Below, in pieces: positions 1,368 through 56,987 of a DNA stretch of 64,000 bases. Numbering within the stretch: the first letter of the stretch is position 1; the number at the start of each line of letters is the position of its first letter. Source of the DNA: Candidatus Beckwithbacteria bacterium GW2011_GWC1_49_16. Its GTDB lineage: Bacteria > Patescibacteriota > Microgenomatia > UBA1400 > CG1-02-47-37. The notes below the pieces were generated by a model. It worked only from the letters and a program-made list of their open reading frames with translations, was not told where the DNA came from and made no database searches. Position numbers and translations under genes: made by a program. Where the stretch lies: assembly GCA_001029675.1 (NCBI GenBank), contig CP011210.1, forward strand, positions 711,528 through 775,527, written 5' to 3'.

Positions 1368-1797
1368 GCTAACGGGTAGAATAATTTTAGCATTTTTTCT
1401 GGCAGGCGATGGTGGCAGTGTATACTACAAGAGATAAAGATTAATAGGGACTAGTTTATTATCCTAGGGTAAGAAAGGGAAATCTAATTTAGGGTGTTTT
1501 AAATCTGAGCCTTCGAAAACTCCAGCGTCGATCTTGTCCTTTGCCGTTAGTTAAACGAGAACCTTCTAGTGAAATACCTTGTATATGACGGTGAAGGCTA
1601 CACATTGGATCCGAAGCGTGTAACACAGGCCAACCTCGACCCTTCCTTACGTCACTAGCTGAATCCGATCCTTGTATCGACCTTGGGTCGCTTTCATGGT
1701 ATCTGCCTGACATAGTAAATACTATATGTTATTCAACAAAGAGTGTCAAGTGTTGCTAAAATGATTCTTTTACGTATATGTAAGGTAAAATAAAGAT

Positions 1798-2463
1798 ATG
1801 AAGATTGATATTCTGACGATTTTTCCTGACATGTTTGCCGGGCCGTTTGCGGAGAGTATCCTTCGCCGCGCCCAAGATAAAAAGCTGGTGAAGATTAAAA
1901 TTCATAATCTGCGCCGCTGGGCCAAAGACCGGCATAAAACCGTTGACGACAGGCCTTTTGGCGGCGGGCCGGGCATGGTGATGCGGGTGGACATTATCGA
2001 CAAAGCCCTAACCGCGCTCGGGTCTGGACACAAAATCTTACTCACTCCTCAAGGGAAAACTTTTAACCAACAAGCGGTGGCTAGCTTAAGCCGCAAAAAA
2101 CATTTGATTTTGGTAGCCGGTCACTATGAAGGCTTTGACGAGCGCGTCCGCAACCTGGTGGACGAAGAAATCTCCATCGGCGACTATATTCTGACCGGAG
2201 GGGAACTGGCGGCGATGGTAGTAGTGGACGCGGTGGTGCGGCTAATTCCCGGCGTGGTGGGAGAAAAAGAGTCGGTCAAAGAAGAATCTTTCAGCCGCGC
2301 CTTGGGCGGCTTGGAGTATCCCCACTATACCCGCCCGGCGGACTATAAAGGCAAAAAGGTGCCTGAAGTTTTACTCTCCGGCGATCACACCGCTATCTCC
2401 AAATGGCGCGCCGAGCAGGCGAAAAAACGAACTAAACAGAGACGGCCGGATTTACTAAGATAA
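1798..2463 (+). CDS. trmD: tRNA (guanine37-N1)-methyltransferase TrmD
   Basis: 221 aa; MKIDILTIFPDMF...RPFGGGPGMVM...ILTGGELAAMV motifs characteristic of TrmD SPOUT fold. Confidence 0.9.
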   Translation: MKIDILTIFPDMFAGPFAESILRRAQDKKLVKIKIHNLRRWAKDRHKTVDDRPFGGGPGMVMRVDIIDKALTALGSGHKILLTPQGKTFNQQAVASLSRKKHLILVAGHYEGFDERVRNLVDEEISIGDYILTGGELAAMVVVDAVVRLIPGVVGEKESVKEESFSRALGGLEYPHYTRPADYKGKKVPEVLLSGDHTAISKWRAEQAKKRTKQRRPDLLR

Positions 2464-2478
2464 TTTAAATTATCTTAG
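2455..2478. promoter_or_regulatory. perfect 24-bp AT-rich palindrome CTAAGATAATTTAAATTATCTTAG spanning both convergent stop codons
   Basis: self-complementary; related copies at 11986..12010, 12448..12472, 56954..56976. Confidence 0.6.
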
Positions 2479-3373
2479 TGGATGAGGAGAGTTGTTGTTT
2501 CAAAGTAGAAAGGGCTTGGTCGATGGTAGACATGGTGACGCCAAGGTCACGCTTGAGCTTGGCGTTGGATAGCTTAAGATACTGTTGGCGGGGGCGGGTA
2601 TCGGTCTTGGCATAATCCTTAAAACTCCCCTGTTTAATCGTGCCGGGAAGATTAAAAGTAGTTTTAATTTTTTGAGCCAGATCAAAAGGGCTAAGCCCGC
2701 TTGAACCGACAAGGTGGTAGGTGCCGCTGGGTTTCTTGTCAAGAAAAACTTTGAGGGCGGTGGCGATGTCGTCGATAAAAGTCGGGATGATGGTTTGATC
2801 GGCAAACATGGGGTGGAGCGAATCGGTTTTCAGTTTGTCGATGATACTTCTGACCAAATCAAGTTTTGACGCAAAATGGCTTCGGAAAGGAAAGGCGATT
2901 CTGACGATGGCGGCTGGGGCGCCGGATTTTCTGACCGCTTCCTCGGCCATGAGCTTGGTCTGGCCGTACCATTCGATGGGATGGGTGGAGTCTTCTTCGG
3001 TGTACCCGCCAGGGGGCGGGTTTTTGCCGTCAAAAACAAAATCGGTGGAGACGTGGATAAGATAAAGCTTTCTCTCGGCGGCAACTCGAGCAATGTTTTG
3101 GCTGCCGACGACGTTGACCTGGTAAACCAATCCCTCCCTGTCACCTTTTTGCTGTGAAGCTTTAGAAACATCGGTAAAGGCAGCCAGGTGGATTAGGCCG
3201 TGGGCCTCGGGGTGGGCGGAAATGACTCTGTCTACTTGGCTTTTATCGGTAATGTCGATGCCGGTAGCAAGATCAAGGTTGACAAAGTCGTATTGAGAAG
3301 ACAAAAGTTCCACCACCCGGGAACCGACCAGACCGGAAAGGCCGGTGCCCAAGATAAGGGATTTGGCTGCCAT
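2465..3373 (-). CDS. rfbD: dTDP-4-dehydrorhamnose reductase (RmlD)
   Basis: 302 aa, N-terminal Rossmann GxxGxxG (ILGTGLSGLVGS), RmlD-like length; operon with rfbC/rfbB. Confidence 0.8.
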   Translation of the reverse strand: MAAKSLILGTGLSGLVGSRVVELLSSQYDFVNLDLATGIDITDKSQVDRVISAHPEAHGLIHLAAFTDVSKASQQKGDREGLVYQVNVVGSQNIARVAAERKLYLIHVSTDFVFDGKNPPPGGYTEEDSTHPIEWYGQTKLMAEEAVRKSGAPAAIVRIAFPFRSHFASKLDLVRSIIDKLKTDSLHPMFADQTIIPTFIDDIATALKVFLDKKPSGTYHLVGSSGLSPFDLAQKIKTTFNLPGTIKQGSFKDYAKTDTRPRQQYLKLSNAKLKRDLGVTMSTIDQALSTLKQQLSSSTKII

Positions 3374-3923: not shown

Positions 3924-4901
3924 CTATTTTACCATTTTTAAAGGCTGCCACCAGTCCCGATTGTTTCGGTACCAGTCAACGGTTTGTTTTAAGTAAATGT
4001 CAAAGCTGTAGCGGGGTTGGTAGTTTAACTTTCTTTGAGCTTTGGACCAATCCAGCGCATAGCGGCGATCATGAGCTGGGCGGTCTTTGACAAACTCTAT
4101 CTGTGACTCAGGCTCACCCATTATTTTTAAAATCTTTTTGACTACGGTTAGATTGTCCAGGTCTTCGGTCAGGCCGCCGATGCAGTAAGTGGCGCCGGCC
4201 TGACCTTTTTTTAACACCTGTTCGATGGCCCGGCAGTGGTCTTCGACGTAGAGCCAGTCTCTAACGTTTTTGCCGTCGCCGTAGACGGGGACTTTTTTGC
4301 CTTCGATGAGGTTGGTGACTGTTAAGGGAATGAGCTTTTCGGGAAACTGGTAGGGGCCGTAGTTGTTGGAGGTGTTGGTGATGGTGGTTTTTATACCAAA
4401 AGTTTTGTGGTAGGCCCGAATCAAGTGATCGGAAGCCGCCTTGGTGGCGGCATAGGGGCTGTTGGGGCGAAAGTGACTTTTTTCCGAGAATTTTTTGTTC
4501 GACCCCAGCGCCAGCGAGCCGTAGACTTCATCGGTGGAGATATGGTGAAAGTGGCTTAACTGGTGTTTAACGGCGGCAGCCAGTAGCACCTGGGTACCGA
4601 CGACGTTGGTGACCACAAAGACCGCCGGGTTGTCGATGGAGCGGTCGACGTGAGATTCAGCGGCAAAGTGGACGACGATGTCAACCCCGGCCATGGCCTG
4701 GTCGACAACTTTAGGGTCGGCAATATCGCCTTTGACAAACTGGTAGCGGGGGTTGCCCTCGAGCGCCTTGAGGTTGGCAAGATTACCGGCGTAAGTTAAT
4801 TTATCGAGATTAACTATCTGGTCATTAGGATGATTCTTAACCCAGTAGTGGATAAAGTTTGAACCGATAAAGCCAGCGCCACCGGTGACTAAAATTTTCA
4901 T
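3924..4901 (-). CDS. rfbB: dTDP-glucose 4,6-dehydratase (RmlB)
   Basis: 325 aa; MKILVTGGAGFIGSNF..., YAATKAASDHL (YxxxK) SDR-extended motifs. Confidence 0.9.
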   Translation of the reverse strand: MKILVTGGAGFIGSNFIHYWVKNHPNDQIVNLDKLTYAGNLANLKALEGNPRYQFVKGDIADPKVVDQAMAGVDIVVHFAAESHVDRSIDNPAVFVVTNVVGTQVLLAAAVKHQLSHFHHISTDEVYGSLALGSNKKFSEKSHFRPNSPYAATKAASDHLIRAYHKTFGIKTTITNTSNNYGPYQFPEKLIPLTVTNLIEGKKVPVYGDGKNVRDWLYVEDHCRAIEQVLKKGQAGATYCIGGLTEDLDNLTVVKKILKIMGEPESQIEFVKDRPAHDRRYALDWSKAQRKLNYQPRYSFDIYLKQTVDWYRNNRDWWQPLKMVK

Positions 4902-11982: not shown

Positions 11983-11997
11983 TAATAGTTAAATAAT

Positions 11998-12447
11998 TTA
12001 AATTATCTTACTAGTGCTGGATTGCTGCTTTTTGGCTTTTATCTCACGCCAAAAACCTGTGCCTTTGCCGCGACCGACTGTTAAAGCATCTAGAGCAAAG
12101 TTTTCTATCTTGTCAAAGATCGACTTAATTTTTTGCTCCCTTAAAATCCTGTCTAAAACTTTATGATACCCCTGGCCGGAATACTTGAGTTTACGATTAA
12201 CGTCGGCAATGGTCGATTGACTAACTTTAATTAGTTTTTTGATCGCTTCGTAGTTGTAACCCTGTTTCAACATTAAAGCAATAGTGATTCGTTTTGATAA
12301 AACTATTCTCTCCGTAGGGGACAAAAAGTCTTTTAAAAAAAGTAAAATGTCCTCATGTTTATAAAGTAAGGAGAGAGTTTCTAGAAAAATTGAGTTTATT
12401 TCTTGCTTAACTTTATCGGCTAAGAAGTACCGGGAAACTTGTGACAT
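11998..12447 (-). CDS. TrpR/YerC-YecD-like HTH protein
   Basis: 149 aa; ...SPTERIVLSKRITIALMLKQGYNYEAIKKLIKVSQSTIADV... TrpR-like HTH; flanked on both sides by an AT palindrome. Confidence 0.5.
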   Translation of the reverse strand: MSQVSRYFLADKVKQEINSIFLETLSLLYKHEDILLFLKDFLSPTERIVLSKRITIALMLKQGYNYEAIKKLIKVSQSTIADVNRKLKYSGQGYHKVLDRILREQKIKSIFDKIENFALDALTVGRGKGTGFWREIKAKKQQSSTSKII

Positions 12448-20321: not shown

Positions 20322-21083
20322 ATGAAACTGAAATTAATTATTTTAGGATTGGTTTTGGCGGGAGCGTTTACAGCTGGGGCTATCAAATCCAACACTAATC
20401 GTTCTGCTTATGCTTGCGGTGGCGATTGTAATGGGGACCACGAAGATGAAGTGACTATCTGTCAATGTAGGGTAAGGGAAGATGTGCTTCAGTGTCGCAC
20501 TATTGAAGTTGACGAGGAAGATGTTGAGGATATTTTTGAGGCATACCCACGCTCTTACCTTGGAGCATGCACGTCACCATCCCCCAGCCCTTCTCCATCA
20601 CCGGAGCCAAGCGAAGAACCTTCGCCTAGTCCATCGCCGAGCCCAACTCCGGAAACAGAAGTCGGTTTAGGAGTTAACGGCCCGTCATGTACCAGCAACA
20701 GCTTTAGCGCCAACATCTCTGTTTTGGTAGGGGGTGTGGGTCAAGAAGGAGTTGAAGTCAAGTTCAACTACCAGGACCAAGAAAAAAGCGCCACCACCAA
20801 CGACAAAGGTGAGGCCAGCGTCGACTTTGAATTCAAAGGCAATGGTGAAGTCAAAGCCACTTCTGCCGGTTACCCGGAGCAGAAAGCTGGTGTCGAAGCC
20901 GTCAGGGAAGATTGTCCCAGCACGGGAGGCACAGGCGAAGTCCTGGGAGCAGCTACCGGTGGACAAGTCCTAGGTGCTATGGCCGATACCGGTGACCCGG
21001 TAACCGATCTCATGTTAGTATTATTTACCATGGGATCAACCCTCGCGGGAACCGGATTGAGGCTGTATAGCAAGAAAAGCTAG
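20322..21083 (+). CDS. secreted Cys-rich/PS-linker protein with prealbumin-like C-domain and sorting-signal-like C-terminus
   Basis: 253 aa; signal peptide, Cys-containing N-domain, SPSP linker, C-terminal 125 aa identical to paralog 21202..22113, then ...GTGEVLG...AMADTG + TM + KKS. Confidence 0.6.
   Translation: MKLKLIILGLVLAGAFTAGAIKSNTNRSAYACGGDCNGDHEDEVTICQCRVREDVLQCRTIEVDEEDVEDIFEAYPRSYLGACTSPSPSPSPSPEPSEEPSPSPSPSPTPETEVGLGVNGPSCTSNSFSANISVLVGGVGQEGVEVKFNYQDQEKSATTNDKGEASVDFEFKGNGEVKATSAGYPEQKAGVEAVREDCPSTGGTGEVLGAATGGQVLGAMADTGDPVTDLMLVLFTMGSTLAGTGLRLYSKKS
20622..20992 (+). repeat. 371-bp perfect direct repeat, copy 1
   Basis: identical to 21640..22010 (offset 1018 bp) by direct inspection. 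Confidence 0.9.
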
Positions 21084-21201: not shown

Positions 21202-22113
21202 ATGAAAAAGATTTTTGCTTTAATCTTCCTAATAACCATTTCCCTATTTTTAGGGTCTAGGATGCGCGTATTGGCCCAACAACAGCTGGTGACTATTTGT
21301 CACGCTACCAGTAGCCAGACTAATCCCTATGTCCAAATTACTGCCGCTTACCCAGCTATTTATGGACCAGCTGGTCACTTCAGCGAACCCGGCACTACCA
21401 ATGCCGGCCATGAAGAAGATTACGAAGGACCCTGCACTTGTGAAGATCTACCAGCTAACTGCCCTAGCCCTTCACCAAGCCCGTCTCCGTCACCAAGTCA
21501 TTCACCCTCGCCATCTCCATCTCCTAGCCCGAGTCCGTCGCCATCTCCCAGCCCATCGGTATCTCCTTCACCATCGCCCAGCCCCTCACCATCGCCGAGT
21601 CCGGAAGTTTCTCCCAGCCCAAGCCCAAGGGTGAGCCCGTCGCCTAGTCCATCGCCGAGCCCAACTCCGGAAACAGAAGTCGGTTTAGGAGTTAACGGCC
21701 CGTCATGTACCAGCAACAGCTTTAGCGCCAACATCTCTGTTTTGGTAGGGGGTGTGGGTCAAGAAGGAGTTGAAGTCAAGTTCAACTACCAGGACCAAGA
21801 AAAAAGCGCCACCACCAACGACAAAGGTGAGGCCAGCGTCGACTTTGAATTCAAAGGCAATGGTGAAGTCAAAGCCACTTCTGCCGGTTACCCGGAGCAG
21901 AAAGCTGGTGTCGAAGCCGTCAGGGAAGATTGTCCCAGCACGGGAGGCACAGGCGAAGTCCTGGGAGCAGCTACCGGTGGACAAGTCCTAGGTGCTATGG
22001 CCGATACCGGAACCGCTGTCGAGAGTGCATTTCAGTTAATTTTCAGCCTGGGAGCATTAATGCTAGGATGGGGTATCGGGATTTATGCCAAAAAAGAAAA
22101 CTTGGTGGAATAA
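21202..22113 (+). CDS. paralogous secreted Cys-rich/PS-linker protein with sorting-signal-like C-terminus
   Basis: 303 aa; different N-domain, long SPSP linker, identical C-domain, ...AMADTG + TM + KKENLVE. Confidence 0.6.
21640..22010 (+). repeat. 371-bp perfect direct repeat, copy 2
   Basis: identical to 20622..20992. Confidence 0.9.
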
Positions 22114-22690
22114 AAAACTTAAGTTCGGACAGAAATTTTGGCGGGGTTTTACCAGGCAACAAAAACACGGCATTTATTTAATCTTTAGCGGCGTCTTACT
22201 GGTATTGGTTTTTGCCAGCTGGAGGTGGCACGAGTCAAGAATTTTGGCTTTTAACCGGCAGTTTGAAGTGGTGGAGACAAGCGGGGTGGCTCCAGTAGCA
22301 ATCAAGATCCCTAAGGTAAATATTGATTTGGCGGTGACAGAGGCGACGATTACCGACAATACCTGGGAGATATCGGCAACCGGCGCCAGTCACTGGGACA
22401 ACTCTGCCAATCCGGGCGAGGGCGGCAACATTGTCATTTACGGCCACAACAAAACCAATCTTTTCGGACCAATCAGGTGGGTCAGCCCGGGCGAAATCAT
22501 TGAAGTAACCGGCGCCGACGGTAAAGTTTATGAGTATAAAATTACGGAAACAGTGATTACCGAACCCAACGACGTGGCCTATGTTTTACCTAAAGACAAA
22601 GAAACCCTGACCCTTTATACCTGCACCGGGCTGTTTGACAGTAAGCGCTATATCGTGGTGGCCGAGCCTTACAACGAACCCCTAAACTGA
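22085..22690 (+). CDS. sortase (transpeptidase), membrane-anchored
   Basis: 201 aa; N-terminal TM; catalytic His (NIVIYGHN) and TLxTC Cys (TLTLYTCTG) plus Arg (KRYIVVAEP). Confidence 0.8.
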
Positions 22691-25468: not shown

Positions 25469-25691
25469 AAGTGGCGAAGACAACGGTAAAGTTATTGTTG
25501 CCAAGCTAGACAACCAAGCCGTCGGCTATGTAACTGCCGAATTTGCCCCATGGAATAAATTAGCCAGAATTCATGGATTGATTATTCACCAGGAACTAAG
25601 AAGAAAAAAGCTTGCCTCAAAATTAGTTACTGAAGATGAAAATCTCCATGGGGTTACCTACTTAAAACTCTTCAAGTGGTCTGAAGTTTAA
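25395..25691 (+). pseudogene. GNAT acetyltransferase C-terminal remnant
   Basis: motif A-like HQELRRKKLASKLV present but motifs C/D absent; overlaps previous ORF in another frame. Confidence 0.3.
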
Positions 25692-25717
25692 ACGAGGTTG
25701 GTGCTTTAACGGCCAGT

Positions 25718-25757
25718 AAAACCTCCTCCCTAAAAAAGAGCGGAGGAGGTTTTTTGA
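25718..25757. terminator. bidirectional intrinsic terminator
   Basis: aaacctcctccc-taaaaaagagc-ggaggaggtttttt between convergent genes. Confidence 0.7.
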
Positions 25758-25765
25758 CGACACTT

Positions 25766-25987
25766 TTACATTGAAGGTTCTGTAGCAGTGTCTTCGGCTG
25801 CCTCACCGGGCAAAGTTGGTTCAGGTGTTTCAGGCTGAGGTTCGCTTGCCGGAGGCGGCGGCGGCTTGGGCATACCAGGGTCAGGCGCCGGCCCACCAGG
25901 AGTCGGCATAGGAGGTGTTGGAGGAGGCGTATCGCTTCCCCCAGATGGCGGGGTAGACCCCGTTGGGTTTTGGGTATCATCCATCAT
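25766..25987 (-). CDS. small proline-rich (disordered) protein
   Basis: 73 aa, ~35% Pro; strong SD AAGGGGGTGA 8 nt upstream; TTCGAA repeats in its promoter. Confidence 0.35.
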   Translation of the reverse strand: MMDDTQNPTGSTPPSGGSDTPPPTPPMPTPGGPAPDPGMPKPPPPPASEPQPETPEPTLPGEAAEDTATEPSM

Positions 25988-26007
25988 GTCCTGTCACCCC
26001 CTTTCAT

Positions 26008-26039
26008 AAATTCGAAATTCGAAGCACGAAATTCGAAAC
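26008..26039. promoter_or_regulatory. three AAATTCGAA(A) direct repeats (palindromic TTCGAA cores)
   Basis: aaattcgaaattcgaagcacgaaattcgaaac in divergent intergenic region. Confidence 0.5.
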
Positions 26040-26122
26040 TTTTTTATACCTCTACACTATAAGAGAATTTTTCCCAGAGCGCAAGTTTAAATTAGCTATT
26101 GACAAGCAGCCAGTTTTGTTAT

Positions 26123-26140
26123 ATTCATATATTCGAATAT
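26123..26140. promoter_or_regulatory. perfect 18-bp palindrome CATATATTCGAATATATG (candidate ArsR-family operator)
   Basis: self-complementary by inspection; abuts the start codon of the ArsR-YHS regulator. Confidence 0.55.
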
Positions 26141-26629
26141 ATGTATAAACAGATTTTCGAGCTTCACGCCGACACCTATAAGGCTTTAGCGGCGGCGAAG
26201 CGCTTGGAAATCGTCCAGCTGTTGCGCGACCAGGAATTGACGGTAACTAAAATCCAGCAGATGTTGGGTCTCCCCCAACCCAACCTGTCGCAGCACTTGC
26301 AGGTGTTGCGCGAACATAAGCTGGTTAATACTAAAAGAAACGGCCAACACGTTTATTACAAACTCTCCCACCCCAATGTGGTCAAGTCTGTCGATTTGGT
26401 GCGGGAGATGCTGGTGGAGCAAAACCGCGGTGACGACAAACTCACCGAAGAGCTGCGGCTGAAAATGAAAGACTTAGTGCCTTTGAGCATCGACCCTGTC
26501 TGTCACATGCGGGTCAGCCCCAAGACGGCGGCGGAAGCGACGGGCTACAAGGGCAGAACTTATTACTTTTGCGCTTCGGGCTGCAAAAAAACTTTTAAAA
26601 AAAGCCCGCAAAAATATGTCCGGCAATAA
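26141..26629 (+). CDS. ArsR/SmtB-family metalloregulator with C-terminal YHS/TRASH metal-binding domain
   Basis: HTH (LTVTKIQQMLGLPQPNLSQHLQVLREHKLV); C-term DPVCHM...YYFCASGCKKTF; start moved to internal Met (ORF track 26099). Confidence 0.7.
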   Translation: MYKQIFELHADTYKALAAAKRLEIVQLLRDQELTVTKIQQMLGLPQPNLSQHLQVLREHKLVNTKRNGQHVYYKLSHPNVVKSVDLVREMLVEQNRGDDKLTEELRLKMKDLVPLSIDPVCHMRVSPKTAAEATGYKGRTYYFCASGCKKTFKKSPQKYVRQ

Positions 26630-27107
26630 ACTGGTGATTTTGATGATCGCGACGACTTTACTTTTGATCGGCGGCGGCGCCTACCTTTTAGGCAAAACGA
26701 GTCAACCGGAACTTAAGGTCAGCGGGGAAGTTAAGACAGAAGTGACGGAGACAAGTTTCGACTGGGGCGAGATACCGATAAACGGCGGTAATGTCAGCCA
26801 TGATTTTATTATTGCTAACTCCGGCCCAGGGGCACTCAAGCTGGCAAGTGTGGCCACTTCGTGTATGTGTACCACAGCAAAAGTTACTATCGGTGATAGC
26901 CAAAGTCCCTTTTTCAGCATGCATTCAAATTCCACTTGGACGGGAGAAGTTGAACCGAAGGGTGAGGCAAGGCTGACCGTAGAGTTTGATCCGGCCTACC
27001 ACGGGCCGAGCGGCTTGGGGGCGATTACCCGCCAAGTGGTGGTAGAGACTAATGATGGTAACCTTCCCCAATTAACCTTTAACTTAACGGCTAATGTGGT
27101 TAACTAA
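26616..27107 (+). CDS. secreted hypothetical protein (Ig-like?)
   Basis: 163 aa, signal anchor; SCMC motif. Confidence 0.4.
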   Translation: MSGNKLVILMIATTLLLIGGGAYLLGKTSQPELKVSGEVKTEVTETSFDWGEIPINGGNVSHDFIIANSGPGALKLASVATSCMCTTAKVTIGDSQSPFFSMHSNSTWTGEVEPKGEARLTVEFDPAYHGPSGLGAITRQVVVETNDGNLPQLTFNLTANVVN

Positions 27108-28008
27108 GCTAAACAAAAAAACCATCAGCTTGAGCCTGGCGTTACTTTTGATGCTGGACGCGGCAGCGGCGGTGGGGCTGGCGGAATACTTTTTACTCAA
27201 AAGGTATTACACCGGCAGGGCTTCGGGCCAGCAGGCGGAACCTCAATTGGAAGAAATTACCCGCCAGGTGCTGCCGGCCGGAGGTTACACCACGAGTATT
27301 TCCTGGGGAGATTTGGGTAAAAAGCTGGTCGAGGCGGGAGCGATTGACGAGAATAAATACCAGCAAACTTTTACCAGCAAGGCCGACGGCCAAGAGGAAT
27401 TGGGCTTGCTTGAGGGCAACTCGGATAAAAAAATTGCCGTCAGCGAGAATAACTCCCGGTTTTTGGTCAATACCCTGTGGGCTTTGGGACTGACTAACAA
27501 ATCCAAGGTTCTTGATGAAGGGCCGATGGCAACCTACGACGTGCCCACGGAAAACTTTGCTTCGACCGCCGGCTGGACTTTGGGTAAAAAACAAGCTATG
27601 GAACTTTATAGTAGCCAGGAGATAATCCCCTTAACCGAGGCTCAACAGGAGCAGGTGAAAAAAATTGCCGAAAATGTTTACCGGCCCTGCTGCGGCAACC
27701 ACACCGCTTTTCCGGACTGCAACCACGGCATGGCGGCTTTGGGCTACATTGAACTGGCGGTGGCCAACGGTCTATCGGAAAAACAAATTTATCAGGATTT
27801 GTTGGCTTTTAACTCTTTCTGGTTCCCGCAAACATATGTGGAGATGGCGGTTTATTTTGAAACGGAAAAAGGAGTCAGCTGGAACAAGGTTGACGCCAAG
27901 TTGGCTTTGTCGAATGAGTATTCCTCGGCCCAAGGGGCGCAAAAAATTCGCCAGGCGGTGCAAAATGTAGAGGGCCTGAAAAGCCAAGGAGGCAGCTGTG
28001 GGGCTTGA
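27094..28008 (+). CDS. membrane-anchored hypothetical protein with CCGNH...C.H Cys/His cluster
   Basis: 304 aa; N-terminal TM; VYRPCCGNHTAFPDCNHGM motif. Confidence 0.4.
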   Translation: MWLTKLNKKTISLSLALLLMLDAAAAVGLAEYFLLKRYYTGRASGQQAEPQLEEITRQVLPAGGYTTSISWGDLGKKLVEAGAIDENKYQQTFTSKADGQEELGLLEGNSDKKIAVSENNSRFLVNTLWALGLTNKSKVLDEGPMATYDVPTENFASTAGWTLGKKQAMELYSSQEIIPLTEAQQEQVKKIAENVYRPCCGNHTAFPDCNHGMAALGYIELAVANGLSEKQIYQDLLAFNSFWFPQTYVEMAVYFETEKGVSWNKVDAKLALSNEYSSAQGAQKIRQAVQNVEGLKSQGGSCGA

Positions 28009-28417
28009 AGCACGAGACGCACACCAGTTGACGTTGGAGCAGGCGGTCAGCGAAATAAAGGACCTTGACTGCGACCAAGTAAGCGAGACACAGTGGGAAG
28101 ATTTGGGCGAGGCCTGGATGGGGCAAATCCATTTTGACCCGGGAGTCCACGAGCGGATGGACCAAATGATGGGCGGCGAGGGTTCGGAATCTTTACGTCA
28201 AGCCCACATGCGCATGGGCCAAAATTATTTGGGCTGCGGGTCAAAAAATTTAGGCATGGCGGGCATGATGAGAACAGGAATGATGGGCTGGGGCGGCGGC
28301 TGGCAACCGTGGTATCAGCCAGCAGGAATTTTGTCTTCAATCACCTGGCTGGCGGTGATAGCGGCGCTAATAGCCATTACCAGATATTTTTGGAAAAAAG
28401 GGGGTGAGAAGAAATGA
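27998..28417 (+). CDS. Met-rich (candidate Cu(I)-binding) membrane-anchored protein
   Basis: 139 aa; MDQMMGGEG, HMRMGQ, MAGMMRTGMMGWGGGW Met-motifs; C-terminal TM. Confidence 0.5.
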   Translation: MGLEARDAHQLTLEQAVSEIKDLDCDQVSETQWEDLGEAWMGQIHFDPGVHERMDQMMGGEGSESLRQAHMRMGQNYLGCGSKNLGMAGMMRTGMMGWGGGWQPWYQPAGILSSITWLAVIAALIAITRYFWKKGGEKK

Positions 28418-28680
28418 AGCTTGACAAGATGGTGCTGGCCAACGCTTTCGGGCTGGCGACCGCCATTTTATGGGTGGTTTGCTCCCTAATGGTGGCCTTG
28501 CTGCCCAATTTTAGCTGGGAAGTGATGCGCTGGTGGATGCACGGCATGGATGTCGATGCCATGGGCGGCTGGAACCTAAACTTATTTAATTTCCTAGCCG
28601 GCGGGTTGACCTTGGTGATTACCGCTTGGGTAACCGGCTATATTTTTGGCTGGTCCTGGGAAAAAGTGAGTAGAAAGTAA
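28414..28680 (+). CDS. small 3-TM membrane protein
   Basis: 88 aa hydrophobic; SD AAGGGGGTGA upstream. Confidence 0.4.
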   Translation: MKLDKMVLANAFGLATAILWVVCSLMVALLPNFSWEVMRWWMHGMDVDAMGGWNLNLFNFLAGGLTLVITAWVTGYIFGWSWEKVSRK

Positions 28681-28687
28681 ATTTGAA

Positions 28688-29497
28688 ATGTTTAACCAAA
28701 TTTCTTTAATCGCCGCTTTTATTGCCGGCATGGTGGCTTTGTTTGCTCCCTGCTGTTTTTCTTATTTGCTGCCAGCCTACTTTGGCAATATTTTTAAGGA
28801 AAAAAAACGAGTGATACTGATGACTCTGATTTACTCTTTGGGAATTTTTGTGGTGATGCTGCCGGTGGTTTTGGGCGCCCGGGTTTTATCCGGTTTGATT
28901 TTTCAAGTTCACGATCAAACCTATATTTTAGGCAGTTTGTTTATGATTTTGGTGGCGATTCTGGCCTTTTTGGGAATTAAACTGCCTATGCCCCAGATTG
29001 CCCAAAGACAGCCGGGACGGCCCGATGTTGTCTCCACTTTTACTTTAGGTTTGTTTTCCGGCATCACTTCAGCCTGCTGTGCGCCTGTGTTATTAGGTGT
29101 GATTACTTTAAGCGCTTTAACGCCGGGGATACTAACCAGCTTGTTAATCGGAGCGGTTTATGTCTTAGGCATGGTTGCGCCGCTATACGTAGCTTCAGCT
29201 TTTATTGAGAGTCAAAAACTTTTGGAGAAACCAATTATGAGACGGCAAATCACCAGTTTGATGTTAGGCGGAAAGACCTACCCGATTTTTGTTTCCAACT
29301 TAATTGCCGGAGTTACTTTTGCTGTTACCGGTCTGTTGCTACTTTATCTGACTTTAACTGGAAAATTGGGCATGCCCGAGCCGGCCAAAATTAGTTTTGA
29401 ACTTAATCAATTTACCCAAAGTCCGCTGACTAACTTAATTTTTGTCATAATTGGCTTATATCTGCTTTATAAATTTGTCAGACGGGGGGTCAAATGA
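28688..29497 (+). CDS. DsbD/CcdA-like transmembrane protein (Cys pairs in TM helices)
   Basis: 269 aa, 6-8 TM; APCCFSYLLP and SACCAPVLLG. Confidence 0.45.
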   Translation: MFNQISLIAAFIAGMVALFAPCCFSYLLPAYFGNIFKEKKRVILMTLIYSLGIFVVMLPVVLGARVLSGLIFQVHDQTYILGSLFMILVAILAFLGIKLPMPQIAQRQPGRPDVVSTFTLGLFSGITSACCAPVLLGVITLSALTPGILTSLLIGAVYVLGMVAPLYVASAFIESQKLLEKPIMRRQITSLMLGGKTYPIFVSNLIAGVTFAVTGLLLLYLTLTGKLGMPEPAKISFELNQFTQSPLTNLIFVIIGLYLLYKFVRRGVK

Positions 29498-31542
29498 CTT
29501 ATACCTGTCCGATGCACCCGGAGGTCAAAGAACCAGAATCCGGCCGCTGTCCTAAGTGCGGCATGGACCTGGTACCGGCCGATGGTGATGATCATGCCCC
29601 GGAGGACCACTCCGGGCATGATCATGCTGACCACGACCACGCCAGCATGATGGCTGATCCTTCGGCGGCCAAAGAATTTTTGACCAGGTTTATTATTGTC
29701 ACGGTACTACTTATTCCTTTGGGGCTACTTAAACTGTTTGGCGGACCAGCCTATCTTGAATTTGCAGTAGCTTCGATTATTTTCTATTTTGGCTTAATCT
29801 TCTTTGAACACGCCCGCCACGAAGTGATGATGCGCCAGTACGGCATGATGACTTTGGTGTCGGTCGCTGTCGGCTCGGGCTATCTTTTTTCTGCCGCCGG
29901 CACGTTTATTCCGGCCATTGGGGTGGAGTTTTACTTGGAAATCTCGACTTTAATCTGGGTGCTACTCTTTGGCCATTTTTTGGAAGCCAAAAGCTCGTCG
30001 GCTGCCGGCAATGCTCTACAAGAAGTGGCTAAACTCTTACCCAAGGAGGCACACTTTTTGACAGGAGACCAAGTGAAAGACGTTAGTTTGAGTGAGCTTA
30101 AAACCGGGGATATGGTTCGGGTTCTGCCGGGAGAAAAAGTGCCCGCCGACGGAGTCATCGTTCGCGGCCAGGCTAACTTTAGCGAGGCTCACATTACCGG
30201 CGAATCCAAGCCTGTGGAAAAAGGTAAAACCAACCGGGTGGTGGCCGGGGCGATCTGCCTGGATGGGTCGGTTGAAGTTAGACTCGATCGCGTGGGTGAA
30301 TCTTCCACCATTGGCCAGATTCAAAAATTAATCGCTACGGCTCAAAACACCAAGCCGTCGGCCCAGCGGCTGGCCGATAAAGCCTCCAGCTGGTTGACAC
30401 TCATTGCCTTGATTGTTGCCTTGCTGGCGGTGGCGATTTGGTGGCTTTTAATCGGCCAGCCGTTTGTTTTTAGCTTGACCTTGGCAATTACGGTTTTGGT
30501 GATCGCCTGCCCCCACGCTTTGGGTTTGGCGATTCCGACCGTAACCACAATTGCCACGAAACTAGCGGTTAATAACGGAGTGTTTATCAAAGACATGGCC
30601 AAACTCGAAGTGGTCAAAAAAGCCGACTATGTGGTTTTTGACAAAACCGGAACTTTGACTCGCGGCGAGTTTGGGGTTACCAAAGTTGAAGCGGTTGATA
30701 AAGACGAAAGAAAGCTTCTGGCCATTGTCGCCGGCCTGGAGGTCCATTCGTCACATGTCATCGGTCAGTCGATTGTGAAGTTTGCTAAACAACAGGGAGT
30801 TAAACCGGCGCGGGTAACCGAATTTAAAAACCTCGCCGGTAAAGGCATAAGAGGCGAGGTTGACGGTCGCACCTACTTTGTTGGCTCGAGCGCCATGATG
30901 AAATCCATGAGCCTAAAACCGAACCCTTTGGCCAGCGTCTTCATCGCTACTCAAACAGAAATTCTCGGCAGTATTACCCTCGCCGATGAAGTTAAGCCCG
31001 AAGCCAAAACCGCGATTGACAAACTTCACCGTTTGGGCGTTAAAGTGGCGATGTTGACCGGAGACAGCCGCAAGATTGCCGAGGTGGTGGGAAAAAAACT
31101 TAATATCGACACTATCTTTGCCGAGGTTATGCCGCGAAACAAATACGAGCATATTAAAAGTTTGCAGGATAAAGGTCGAGTAGTAATTATGGTCGGCGAC
31201 GGGGTTAATGACGCGCCGGCTTTGACTCAAGCCAATGTTGGTATTGCTGTCGGCGCCGGGACTGACGTGGCGGTAGAAGCCGGCGATATAGTCTTAACCC
31301 GCTCCAACCCGGAAGACATCAGCCGTTTAGTGATGCTTTCGCGCCGGGTTTATCGGAAAATGATTGAAAATCTGGTCTGGGCTTTGGGTTACAACACTTT
31401 GGCGATTCCGGCAGCGGCCGGTCTGTTTATGCCTTGGGGAATCCAGCTAAAACCTGAATACGGCGCCATTTTGATGAGCCTGTCGAGTGTGATTGTGGTG
31501 ATTAACGCCATGAGTTTAAGAAAGGCAAAGCTGGCGATATGA
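29494..31542 (+). CDS. P1B-type copper ATPase, CopB-like (CPH motif)
   Basis: 682 aa; DKTGTLT, GDGVNDAP, TM6 CPH (VIACPHALG); N-terminal TCPMHPE...CPKCGM metal-binding module + His-rich stretch (HSGHDHADHDH). Confidence 0.9.
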   Translation: MTYTCPMHPEVKEPESGRCPKCGMDLVPADGDDHAPEDHSGHDHADHDHASMMADPSAAKEFLTRFIIVTVLLIPLGLLKLFGGPAYLEFAVASIIFYFGLIFFEHARHEVMMRQYGMMTLVSVAVGSGYLFSAAGTFIPAIGVEFYLEISTLIWVLLFGHFLEAKSSSAAGNALQEVAKLLPKEAHFLTGDQVKDVSLSELKTGDMVRVLPGEKVPADGVIVRGQANFSEAHITGESKPVEKGKTNRVVAGAICLDGSVEVRLDRVGESSTIGQIQKLIATAQNTKPSAQRLADKASSWLTLIALIVALLAVAIWWLLIGQPFVFSLTLAITVLVIACPHALGLAIPTVTTIATKLAVNNGVFIKDMAKLEVVKKADYVVFDKTGTLTRGEFGVTKVEAVDKDERKLLAIVAGLEVHSSHVIGQSIVKFAKQQGVKPARVTEFKNLAGKGIRGEVDGRTYFVGSSAMMKSMSLKPNPLASVFIATQTEILGSITLADEVKPEAKTAIDKLHRLGVKVAMLTGDSRKIAEVVGKKLNIDTIFAEVMPRNKYEHIKSLQDKGRVVIMVGDGVNDAPALTQANVGIAVGAGTDVAVEAGDIVLTRSNPEDISRLVMLSRRVYRKMIENLVWALGYNTLAIPAAAGLFMPWGIQLKPEYGAILMSLSSVIVVINAMSLRKAKLAI

Positions 31543-31937
31543 TCGTTGCCGGTTTGCTGGCAAGCTTGGGTTTAAGCGCTTTTTACTACTTAGTTTTGTT
31601 TTTGTTAAGTCAAGATCCGTTTTATCCACTACAACAATTTTTGAGCCTTTGGCCCTGGATGAGTCTATTAATCATCGGCTTCGGAGTCCAGTGGTCAATA
31701 TTTGTCAAATTACGCCAGGGGAAAATGATGGTCGGCGGCACGAGTGCTATTTCCGGCACGGCGATGGTAGCTTGCTGTGCCCACCATGTCAGCGACTTGT
31801 TGCCCTTTTTGGGTTTGGCTGGAGCGGCCATCTTTTTAGTTAACTATCAGAAAGAGTTATTAATTGTCGGTATTGTCAGCAACTTAGCCGGCGTGGGTTT
31901 TATGGCCTGGAGACTGTGGCGGCAAAGCCAGATATGA
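31539..31937 (+). CDS. membrane protein with ACCAHH motif
   Basis: 132 aa, 4 TM. Confidence 0.4.
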   Translation: MIVAGLLASLGLSAFYYLVLFLLSQDPFYPLQQFLSLWPWMSLLIIGFGVQWSIFVKLRQGKMMVGGTSAISGTAMVACCAHHVSDLLPFLGLAGAAIFLVNYQKELLIVGIVSNLAGVGFMAWRLWRQSQI

Positions 31938-32353
31938 AGAAAATCTTGGTCATTTTTAGCCTGGCTTTGTTCTTGACTCTGGGGATTTTGGTCTTAAAAG
32001 GCCAGGCGAAAACTGACGCGACCCGGGCTTACGAAACCAAACAACAAACCATGGGCGCCGTGGAGGTGGTAGTGGTGCCGGAGCAGCTTGAGACAAACTC
32101 CCCCGCCGTCTTCAGCTTAAGCTTAAATACTCACTCTGTTGAGCTAAATTATGACTATACTAAAATTGCCAAACTTACTGACGATCGGGGTAGTAACTAC
32201 CAAGCTCTTTCTTGGGAAGGCGGCAGCGGCGGCCATCATCTTGAGGGTAAACTGACTTTTGAGCCTTTAGAAAAGAGGGCTGACTCTATCACCCTGACTT
32301 TATCGGGCATTGACGGTCAAACTAAAGACTTCACTTGGCTAATTCTGCCCTAA
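31916..32353 (+). CDS. secreted hypothetical protein
   Basis: 145 aa, signal peptide. Confidence 0.4.
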   Translation: MAAKPDMKKILVIFSLALFLTLGILVLKGQAKTDATRAYETKQQTMGAVEVVVVPEQLETNSPAVFSLSLNTHSVELNYDYTKIAKLTDDRGSNYQALSWEGGSGGHHLEGKLTFEPLEKRADSITLTLSGIDGQTKDFTWLILP

Positions 32354-32410
32354 AACTTGCTAAAAGTTGCCAAAAAATGATATGGTAAACGGACTTAAAG
32401 GGGGTGATAA

Positions 32411-32794
32411 GTGATGAAAAAACTTGGACTGTTGATTATTGCTTTAATCGTAGTGGCCGGGGTGGTAATTGCGGCAAAGAACAAACCCAGCCAAGAAACA
32501 AGCATAACCGAAGAGGTGATGCCGGCCGGGAGTGAAGCCACAAGCCAAGAGGTTAAATCAGGCAGTTATTTCTTTGACCCCTTTGAGATCACCGCTAAGG
32601 CAGGAACGGTAACTATCACCAACACCGAAAACCAAGGCTTTCATACCTTTGTCATCGACGAGTTAGGCGTCAAAGAAACTTTGGCCGCGGGCACGAGCTT
32701 TAGTTTTGAAGCCGAACCGGGCACTTATGCCTTTTACTGCGACGTCGGCAACCACCGTGAACTAGGTATGGAGGGTGTGTTAACCGTGGAGTGA
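32411..32794 (+). CDS. cupredoxin (plastocyanin/amicyanin-like blue copper protein)
   Basis: 127 aa; signal anchor; ligands H (GFHTF), C-x2-H-x4-M (YCDVGNHRELGM). Confidence 0.75.
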   Translation: MMKKLGLLIIALIVVAGVVIAAKNKPSQETSITEEVMPAGSEATSQEVKSGSYFFDPFEITAKAGTVTITNTENQGFHTFVIDELGVKETLAAGTSFSFEAEPGTYAFYCDVGNHRELGMEGVLTVE

Positions 32795-56944: not shown

Positions 56945-56987
56945 TACAATACTAAGATAATTTAAATTATTTAAGTAAGGAGGAGTT

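Follow-up and report, generated by a model that had tools for sequence, protein, structure and literature searches.

Which sequence controls the string of metal-related genes that follows an ArsR-type regulator gene in Candidatus Beckwithbacteria bacterium GW2011_GWC1_49_16, and to which signal does that regulator respond? The locus lies in a 64,000-nucleotide stretch of contig CP011210.1 (positions 711,528 to 775,527; hereafter the window, or the 64-kb window), in which an intergenic region at 25988..26140 divides a divergent open reading frame (ORF) for a Pro-rich peptide from the gene of an ArsR/SmtB-family regulator with a C-terminal YHS/TRASH domain (26141..26629, + strand; 162 amino acids), assigned by Pfam, NCBIfam, and the fold of an AlphaFold2 model. 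To our knowledge, bacteria of the candidate phyla radiation (CPR; Patescibacteria), to which this species belongs, have very few regulators, and almost none of them has an assigned binding site or signal. The comparison of orthologous loci described below suggests that the palindromic region at the start of the regulator gene is almost certainly the autoregulatory operator of this ArsR-YHS regulator. It is also likely, as a fuller proposal, that the element at 26119..26142 serves as the operator of the adjacent protein acting as a repressor, with autorepression of the metal operon that would be relieved by Cu(I).

The predicted operator, a box of the SqrR/BigR type at 26119..26142 (not assigned to a strand), was recognized by a matrix for the family and by the conservation of a 6-8-6 arrangement among orthologs. 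Its half-sites are ATATTC (26121-26126) and GAATAT (26135-26140), within which the core letters ATTC (26123-26126) and GAAT (26135-26138) are found, and they are separated by the 8-nt spacer ATATATTC, with the dyad centre between 26130 and 26131. For phylogenetic footprinting, the 60 nt 5' of the start codon was compared in 80 loci whose regulators are 50-68% identical to that of the window, 77 of the loci being usable. The exact sequence ATATTC-N8-GAATATG, terminating in the start codon, was present in 59 of the 77 loci, and both hexamers were found with two mismatches at most in 64. The symmetry reaches further outward to the pair of -20 (A) and +4 (T), which is complementary in 61 of those 64 sites, and the conserved element thus defined appears to be a palindrome of about 24 bp that takes in the ATG and the first base of a conserved Tyr codon. 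An earlier note on this DNA had suggested that the regulator controls itself together with the co-directional metal genes, and the exact conservation of the element in 59 of 77 loci argues for such control.

The 64 ortholog sites with no more than two mismatches in the two hexamers were used to build a 22-bp family matrix, and a scan of the window with it gave strong matches solely at 26119..26150, where 26121-26142 on the - strand scored 30.5 bits and 26119-26140 on the + strand scored 27.0 bits. The two values compare with a median of 32.6 bits for the training sites, to which the site in the window does not belong, and with top scores mostly of 11 bits or less in 20 shuffles of the window, a single one of which reached 18.6 bits. 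The full-matrix scan of the 64-kb window, including the inside of the operon, revealed no further operator, the other positions scoring at most 7 bits, within the range of the shuffles. In 597 kb of related loci, 167 positions scored at least 14 bits compared with 1-3 in shuffles. In 74 of the 80 loci, a site lay no more than 40 nt from the ATG of the regulator, a count that is partly circular in that 64 of those sites had trained the matrix. About 11 sites remained, some of them 5' of the first operon gene where the regulator is not the first, and the rest in promoters of DUF1573, HMA-domain, or cupredoxin-like genes. The distance of such extra copies to the start codon varies, as in the locus L004, where a site at 4534 ends 15 nt before the ATG. 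These extra copies in relatives, like the conservation in orthologs, support the reading of the palindromic region as an operator.

The feature that had first drawn attention to this region was a perfect 18-bp palindrome ending at the regulator ATG. Such a palindrome, CATATATTCGAATATATG, is present at 26126..26143 (not assigned to a strand), 3 nt away from the position first given for it (26123..26140), and it comprises the spacer and the right half-site, with its centre between 26134 and 26135 and its final 3 bases forming the ATG. It arises because the operator spacer repeats the left half-site and is best regarded, from the comparison with relatives, as a lineage-specific elaboration of the larger conserved element. 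The perfect 18-mer palindrome is unremarkable alone, and its significance rests on its position and conservation: of 200 first-order Markov simulations of a 64-kb sequence, 51 gave a longest arm of at least 9, and the window contains a longer perfect palindrome of 26 bp at 2454..2479. In L089, a relative with a 75% identical regulator, the operator block is the same as in the window, 18-mer included. In L091-93 (70% identical), the sequence is CATACATTCGAATATATG, in which one mismatch breaks the 18-mer and leaves ATATTC-N8-GAATAT intact. In L090 (~2972..3000) and L095 (~1489..1517), with regulators 66-68% identical, the half-sites have become ATATTA-N8-TAATAT, with the spacing kept and with no 18-mer palindrome. 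Given the sequences of L090, L091, and L095, the 18-mer was rejected as the functional unit, and the 6-8-6 dyad was adopted instead. The same three loci indicate that the functional dyad would be ATATTC-N8-GAATAT and not one centred on the TTCGAA of the 18-mer, as had been supposed; the dyad centre lies 4 bp to the left of TTCGAA.

The symmetric change of the half-sites in L090 and L095 probably represents one evolutionary event, as these are sister lineages (77% identical). It was also observed that L44, which immediately precedes the recognition helix and is conserved in almost all members, is replaced by I in the regulators of L090 and L095; this replacement and the half-site change may represent protein-DNA co-variation. 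Another variant is found in L013, where the left half-site is AAATTC. The dyad in the window lies 2 bp more distant from the ATG than in most orthologs. At the level of the protein, the Met-Tyr N-terminus is nearly invariant, and at the level of the DNA, T occupies +4 in all 64 sites and A occupies +5 in 63, such that there may be a mutual constraint between the operator palindrome and the two opening codons.

The element was also found at a much greater phylogenetic distance. Metagenome contigs were scanned for exact copies of ATATTCATAYATTCGAATATATGTA, with four matches, namely, the same species, the relative L092, and two GC-rich contigs that are not from CPR bacteria. The latter two carry the identical 25-mer, ATATTCATATATTCGAATATATGTA, at 107..131 of L098 and 566..590 of L099; one copy is located directly 5' of a TauE/SafE gene beside a gene for a 113-residue ArsR protein, and the other is located 5' of a rhodanese gene. 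These contexts are typical of SqrR/BigR-type regulators. The operator and its spacer have both been kept across very distant bacteria. A full-text literature search for ATATTCGAATAT returned no match. With regard to the origin of the orthologous loci, many of L001-L080 belong to assemblies that carry the labels 'uncultured Pseudomonadales', 'Gammaproteobacteria', or 'Rikenellaceae', and such labels are probably wrong, as the sequences and gene contexts look patescibacterial.

The regulator itself was assigned with scores well above the respective cutoffs. In Pfam, the helix-turn-helix (HTH) part matched HTH_5 with 46.8 bits (cutoff, 22; 2.8e-12) and HTH_20 with 41.5 bits (cutoff, 27), and the C-terminal part matched YHS (PF04945) with 56.7 bits (cutoff, 30.3; 2.4e-15). 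The NCBIfam model HTH_metalloreg gave 87.3 bits against a cutoff of 55, and the best NCBIfam equivalog was BigR (NF040642), yet with 58 bits against a cutoff of 155. The protein is 100% identical to one of Candidatus Beckwithbacteria GW2011_GWB1_47_15. Its architecture, which had been thought unusual, turned out to be common: there are 666 homologs at E<=1e-5, with nearly all of the 120 matches listed carrying both the HTH and YHS (PF04945), and 312 confirmed stretches encoding ArsR and YHS together were found in species-representative genomes, almost all of them of Patescibacteria. An upstream TTG (26099) was considered as the start of the regulator and was rejected, the orthologs and gene callers all beginning at the methionine of MY.... 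By tblastn, no paralogous ArsR or YHS gene was detected within the 64-kb window, and our literature search for ArsR+YHS or ArsR+TRASH fusions, or for copper regulation in CPR bacteria, found nothing specific.

The DNA-reading part of the regulator and the type of its operator are of an already known kind. In the AlphaFold2 model (mean predicted local distance difference test score of 84), residues 1-95 form a canonical ArsR winged helix, and a linker helix leads on to a small beta/alpha domain. Foldseek matched the model to HlyU, NolR, SqrR, CzrA, and SmtB with a target-normalised template modelling score of ~0.8 over ~90 residues; no solved structure spanning the YHS part was found. For residues 1-95, the best matches in both sequence and structure are SqrR, BigR, and HlyU. 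For Rhodobacter SqrR, ATTC-N8-GAAT was deduced as the recognition site ("sqr box"), and the footprint of E. coli YgaV contains it as well (PMC9774250). In a crystal structure described in a 2026 preprint, the SqrR dimer binds 1:1 to a two-fold symmetric 22-bp operator and contacts ATTC mainly through Gln residues at helix positions i and i+5, Q61 and Q66, whereas CzrA, SmtB, and NmtR have His at i+5, with no in vitro cross-talk between the clusters (bioRxiv 10.64898/2026.05.15.721447). In an alignment of 23 members of the present family, Q46, N48, S50, Q51, H52, and L53 of the recognition helix are invariant, and the segment Q46-P-N-L-S-Q51-H-L corresponds to QPTLSQQL of BigR, so that the regulator has the same i/i+5 Gln pair as SqrR and BigR when the SqrR numbering is mapped via BigR. 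With SqrR, BigR, and YgaV, and with HlyU, the regulator would have in common ATTC-N8-GAAT, a two-fold 22-bp site lying over the promoter, and autoregulation, which is predicted here. It resembles the classical ArsR/SmtB metal sensors (SmtB, CzrA, NmtR, and CadC) in fold, in the autorepression expected of it, and in having metal-efflux genes in its operon, and differs from them at the DNA, the classical sensors having His at i+5 and a different operator, in contrast to the invariant Q51 and ATTC-N8-GAAT.

The sensing part is a different matter. Persulfide sensing requires a conserved Cys pair (PMC9774250), and the pair of SqrR and BigR (in alpha2 and the C-terminal alpha5) is missing from the regulator, residues 1-120 of which contain no Cys at all. 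The ligand sets of classical metal-sensing ArsR proteins, i.e. Cys in alpha3N or Asp/His/Glu in alpha5, also gave a negative result: the only invariant residues of the alpha5 region are D85 and R88, with no conserved His/Glu set, and unlike the classical sensors, which bind metal at alpha3N or alpha5, the regulator has neither Cys nor a conserved His/Asp set in residues 1-115. What it has in addition to SqrR and BigR is ~50 C-terminal residues forming the YHS/TRASH domain, where the sole invariant Cys residues among the 23 members, C121, C144, and C148, are arranged in the TRASH pattern C-X22-C-X3-C. Sensing is proposed to reside in the YHS domain; the classical metal- and persulfide-sensing sites are missing, and the sole invariant Cys residues are located there.

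A TRASH domain is the copper sensor of archaeal CopR, in which it is joined to an Lrp/AsnC-type HTH in octamers that wrap ~150 bp of DNA (PMC7830388). CopR and CopT of Sulfolobus, Pyrococcus, and Thermococcus, the nearest functional precedent for such a fusion, are like the present regulator in combining an HTH with a C-terminal TRASH/YHS domain beside a copper P-type ATPase (PMC7830388, PMC3600143). CopR recognizes TTNNCAWWWTGNNAA upstream of the B recognition element (BRE) and TATA box and is largely an activator of the divergent copA. Unlike CopR, the regulator has an ArsR-type winged helix, is presumably a dimer, and has just one site, of 22 bp, that lies on a bacterial -10, an arrangement that fits a simple repressor. 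CsoR and CstR offer an analogy only: there, one DNA-binding scaffold is adapted to either Cu(I) or persulfide by alterations of the sensing site. CsoR and CstR are four-helix bundles with a switch of ligand residues, whereas a separate domain is appended here. What would be new at this locus is the combination of a SqrR-type head with a TRASH/YHS sensor, an operator on a start codon without a Shine-Dalgarno sequence, and the conservation across CPR bacteria.

The metal to which the regulator may respond was deduced from the genes behind it. The genes overlap or abut from the regulator at 26141 to ~32794, and the co-directional string after the regulator (26616..32794, + strand) is presumed from its overlapping and tight ORF junctions to be a single operon. 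It encodes, in order, a DUF1573 protein, a 304-residue Cys-rich protein, a 139-residue Met-rich protein, a DUF5676 protein, and a 269-residue DsbD/CcdA-like membrane protein, followed by a P1B ATPase with an HMBD and a CPH motif, proteins of 132 and 145 residues, and a plastocyanin-like protein of 127 residues. The ATPase (29494..31542, + strand) passes the model for copper-translocating ATPases (TIGR01511) with 546 bits against a cutoff of 397. It carries an N-terminal HMBD (CxxC...CxxC, zinc-ribbon-like), a His-rich stretch, and a CopB-like CPH transmembrane motif; in the relatives L090 and L095, HMA-domain ATPases are found instead, and the subtype of the transporter thus varies under the same regulator. 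A homolog of the P1B ATPase is encoded downstream on the strand of the regulator in 62 of the 80 loci; in 23 of the 80, the gene next after that of the regulator encodes a DUF1573 protein. The presumed regulon is centred on a P1B ATPase here and, in contrast, on sqr, rhodanese, or blh genes for SqrR and BigR.

The same operator and autorepression could also be combined with another signal, either sulfide, persulfide, or redox state sensed through the three Cys residues of the YHS domain, or Ag, Cd, Zn, or Hg. This alternative draws on the operator type and the recognition helix, both of the persulfide-sensor clade, on BigR being the best NCBIfam equivalog, and on the presence in the operon of DsbD/CcdA-like and Cys-rich proteins with weak similarity to TsoB and OS_HP2, to which the operon of the relative L095 adds a rhodanese-DUF1573 gene. 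It is opposed by the lack of the SqrR/BigR Cys pair in a protein free of Cys up to residue 120, by the shortfall of the BigR score (58 bits for a cutoff of 155), by the metal-binding nature of YHS/TRASH domains, one of which senses copper in archaeal CopR, and by the P1B ATPase downstream in 62 of 80 loci, that of the window passing the copper-translocating model and being followed by a cupredoxin-like gene. On balance, we regard a signal other than copper as unlikely. As for the similarities just mentioned, the DUF1573 protein (26616..27107) is weakly similar to the NCBIfam (seleno)protein OS_HP2, the 269-residue membrane protein (28688..29497) weakly matches the DsbD part of the selenoprotein TsoB, both far under the cutoff, and TsoR is among the sub-threshold matches of the regulator. 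There are hints here that the front of the metal operon may be a thiol/redox or 'tso'-like module.

The position of the operator relative to the promoter gives a possible mode of action. A sigma-70-type promoter for the regulator operon was predicted at 26099..26125 (+ strand) by direct reading and a custom scan, with a -35 of TTGACA (26099-26104), a 15-nt spacer, and an extended -10 of TGtTATATT (26117-26125), the -10 hexamer sharing five of its six bases with the left half-site. In 25 orthologous loci, the arrangement is TTGACA-17/18-TATATT, with the -10 on the left half-site and ending 13 nt before the ATG. In 25 others, the -10 (TAATAT or similar) is at the dyad centre and ends 6-7 nt before the ATG; with this geometry, transcription would begin at the A of the ATG itself. 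No Shine-Dalgarno-like tetramer was found at -20 to -1 in any of the 64 ortholog sites, and the regulator of the window is likewise without a Shine-Dalgarno sequence. With this lack and the overlap with the -10, the regulator transcript is therefore predicted to be leaderless or nearly so. SqrR and BigR differ in this respect, as in the present case the right half-site holds the start codon of a gene that has no Shine-Dalgarno sequence.

These features could also be taken to mean that the conserved sequence is a promoter combined with a signal for leaderless initiation and is not a repressor site, since a -10-like hexamer and the start codon are always within the element, a Shine-Dalgarno sequence is lacking, and AT-rich -10 regions are naturally prone to form palindromes. 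We consider this very improbable. The strict two-fold symmetry covers positions that do not belong to a promoter (the GAAT by the ATG and the -20/+4 pair), the change in L090 and L095 is double and symmetric, and extra copies occur at variable distances from the start codons of other metal genes, as in L004. Furthermore, an identical sequence precedes the TauE and rhodanese genes in GC-rich bacteria, and the element is identical to an experimentally defined protein-binding box.

In the proposed mechanism of repression by the ArsR-YHS protein, one homodimer would place its two recognition helices on ATATTC-N8-GAATAT, and with the repressor bound at 26119..26142, the -10, the start region, and the initiation codon would all be covered, a classic layout for autorepression, and RNA polymerase would be blocked. 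This block would silence the regulator and the downstream string from the DUF1573 gene through that of the P1B ATPase to the cupredoxin gene. A thiophilic metal, most probably Cu(I), captured by C121, C144, and C148 of the YHS domain would lower the affinity for DNA, and the operon would be derepressed. Several points weigh against this proposal. We infer the binding by the regulator, the repression, and the transcription start from what is observed directly, namely, the conservation and position of the motif, the domain content, and the gene context, and the identity of the metal solely from the gene context. Sulfur sensors are the source of both the type of operator and the closest equivalog (BigR, 58 bits), and the rhodanese-DUF1573 gene in the regulator operon of L095 counts in the same direction. 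The 15-nt spacer of the promoter in the window is suboptimal, and a strict consensus scan of 25600-26300 for promoters and terminators gave zero promoters at threshold, the regulator promoter having been missed because of this spacer. The conservation of ATG-TAT could partly stem from protein constraints, and another ArsR protein encoded outside the scanned 64 kb might be the binder.

If the proposal is true, it would provide a family-wide, testable operator model for one CPR regulator, with a site of 22-24 bp and a regulon centred on a P1B ATPase, and an example of modular rewiring in the ArsR superfamily, in which the SqrR/BigR operator has been retained and the allosteric input swapped for TRASH/YHS. 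It would be relevant both to the diversification of allostery in that superfamily and to the construction of cell-free biosensors, and the operator embedded in the start codon predicts leaderless expression in CPR bacteria. By extension, the main copper sensor of CPR bacteria could be an uncharacterised ArsR class in which a SqrR/BigR head is combined with TRASH/YHS sensing as a convergent counterpart of CopR, with one 24-bp palindrome serving as the repressor site, the -10/start region, and the Met-Tyr codons; we regard the chances of this wider proposal as evenly balanced.

The question remaining at this locus is whether the divergent Pro-rich gene belongs to the same regulon. Three AAATTCGAA units were found before that gene and its Shine-Dalgarno sequence (26008-16, 26015-23, and 26029-37), as the earlier note had reported, and AAATTCGAA occurs 5 times in the window against 1.29 expected, a count attained in 1 of 100 shuffles. 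The three units are held in a 7-bp tandem repeat, AAATTCG x4.4, detected at 26008..26038 (not assigned to a strand) by Tandem Repeats Finder. The earlier note had read the triple as the operator of the divergent gene, with recognition centred on TTCGAA, such that the regulator would bind the 18-mer and the three AAATTCGAA units and co-control the Pro-rich gene. A roadblock in the 5' untranslated region or DNA looping would be examples of how such control could work. There is some sequence evidence in that direction: AAATTCGAAA fits the 10-nt family half-site at 9 positions with 10.1 bits, the two such units rank 7th-8th among the positions of the 64-kb window by the half-site matrix and are 21 bp apart, i.e. 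about two helical turns, the AAATTC of the array serves as the left half-site in the ortholog L013, and the Pro-rich gene keeps its syntenic, divergent placement in three lineages. However, no GAAT occurs in the array, which excludes an ATTC-N8-GAAT dyad, and its full-matrix score stays below 6 bits; the position at which AAATTCGAAA is mismatched is T in 126 of the 128 family half-sites; and the two high-scoring units are tandem copies and hence represent one event. SqrR binding involves a single dimer on a two-fold symmetric 22-bp site, and it is the 6-8-6 dyad, not the 18-mer, that the family keeps. Moreover, the array is absent from L089 and L091-93, both lineages keeping the operator and the Pro-rich gene, and it lies at about +12 to +42 of the predicted 5' untranslated region of the Pro-rich gene, off the promoter. 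We consider co-control of this kind decidedly unlikely. A lack of conservation in orthologous intergenic regions had been named beforehand as the outcome that would speak against the motif; the 6-8-6 operator is conserved there and the AAATTCGAA triple is not.

From these comparisons, the AAATTCG array appears to be a slippage-type, species-specific tandem repeat outside the regulatory system. It is less likely that it represents a newly evolved cluster of weak half-sites drawing the Pro-rich gene into the regulon, and weak binding of the regulator to it is possible. Eight contigs of the same species are identical over 384 nt with the array invariant, and the metagenome contig L100 has the same intergenic sequence. 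Phase variation by the copy number of the repeat was considered and is not supported by these invariant contigs, several of which, to be sure, may represent one population. An RNA element in the repeat or 5' untranslated region was also rejected, with a fold z-score of 0.19 and Rfam matches all at E>0.4 and far below the gathering scores.

The Pro-rich ORF (25766..25987, - strand) encodes an acidic, predicted disordered peptide of 73 residues, with GGGGGTGA (26001..25994) as its Shine-Dalgarno sequence. Pfam, a database search for homologs at E<=0.001, and tblastn against the 80 loci all gave no match for it, and it is annotated as a gene in 2 of the 8 records of the same species. In L089 and L091-93, syntenic divergent ORFs of 96 and 114 residues have a conserved MDD(T/Q) start, an LPGE/D motif, and the Shine-Dalgarno block, and the ORF looks real in this comparison. 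A weak promoter for it was deduced at 26056..26084 (- strand), with a -35 of TTGCGC (26084..26079), a 17-nt spacer, and a -10 of TATAGT (26061..26056); it is below the threshold of the consensus scanner and is conserved in L089 and L091, where the -10 is TATAGT or TATATT and the -35 is TTGCAA or TTGCAG. The predicted transcription start is at ~26049, and the operator centre is ~82 bp upstream of it, so that the divergent promoter would not be occluded; control of the Pro-rich gene by the regulator is thus far unsupported. Beyond the end of the ORF, the inverted repeat I4, with a perfect 12-bp stem (AAAACCTCCTCC / GGAGGAGGTTTT) and flanks of A and T runs (25718..25753, not assigned to a strand), is a likely bidirectional terminator ending both the Pro-rich gene and the upstream genes on the + strand. 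In addition, a 7-codon mini-ORF, ATGAAAGGGGGTGACAGGACATGA (26007..25984, - strand), begins inside CATAAATTCGAA and at its end overlaps the two leading Met codons of the Pro-rich ORF, probably by chance. CATAAATTCGAA is 92% complementary to TTCGAATATATG at the regulator start.

Other palindromes and repeats were observed elsewhere in the window. The perfect 26-bp palindrome, ACTAAGATAATTTAAATTATCTTAGT, lies between the convergent ORFs 1798..2463 (+ strand) and 2465..3373 (- strand), and near-copies of its core, ATAATTTAAATTAT, are intergenic at 11993..12006 and 56957..56970, one of them just 5' of a Shine-Dalgarno sequence and ATG; ACTAAGATAATTTAAATTATCTTAGT may serve a different regulator as its operator, or it may be a palindromic element of a dispersed type. 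Furthermore, CTTTGAATTCAAAG is duplicated with ~80 nt of its surroundings at 20825..20838 and 21843..21856, ~1 kb apart, and the second copy is located within an ORF for a 303-residue surface protein with Pro/Ser repeats (21202..22113), which is followed by a sortase-like gene (22085..22690).

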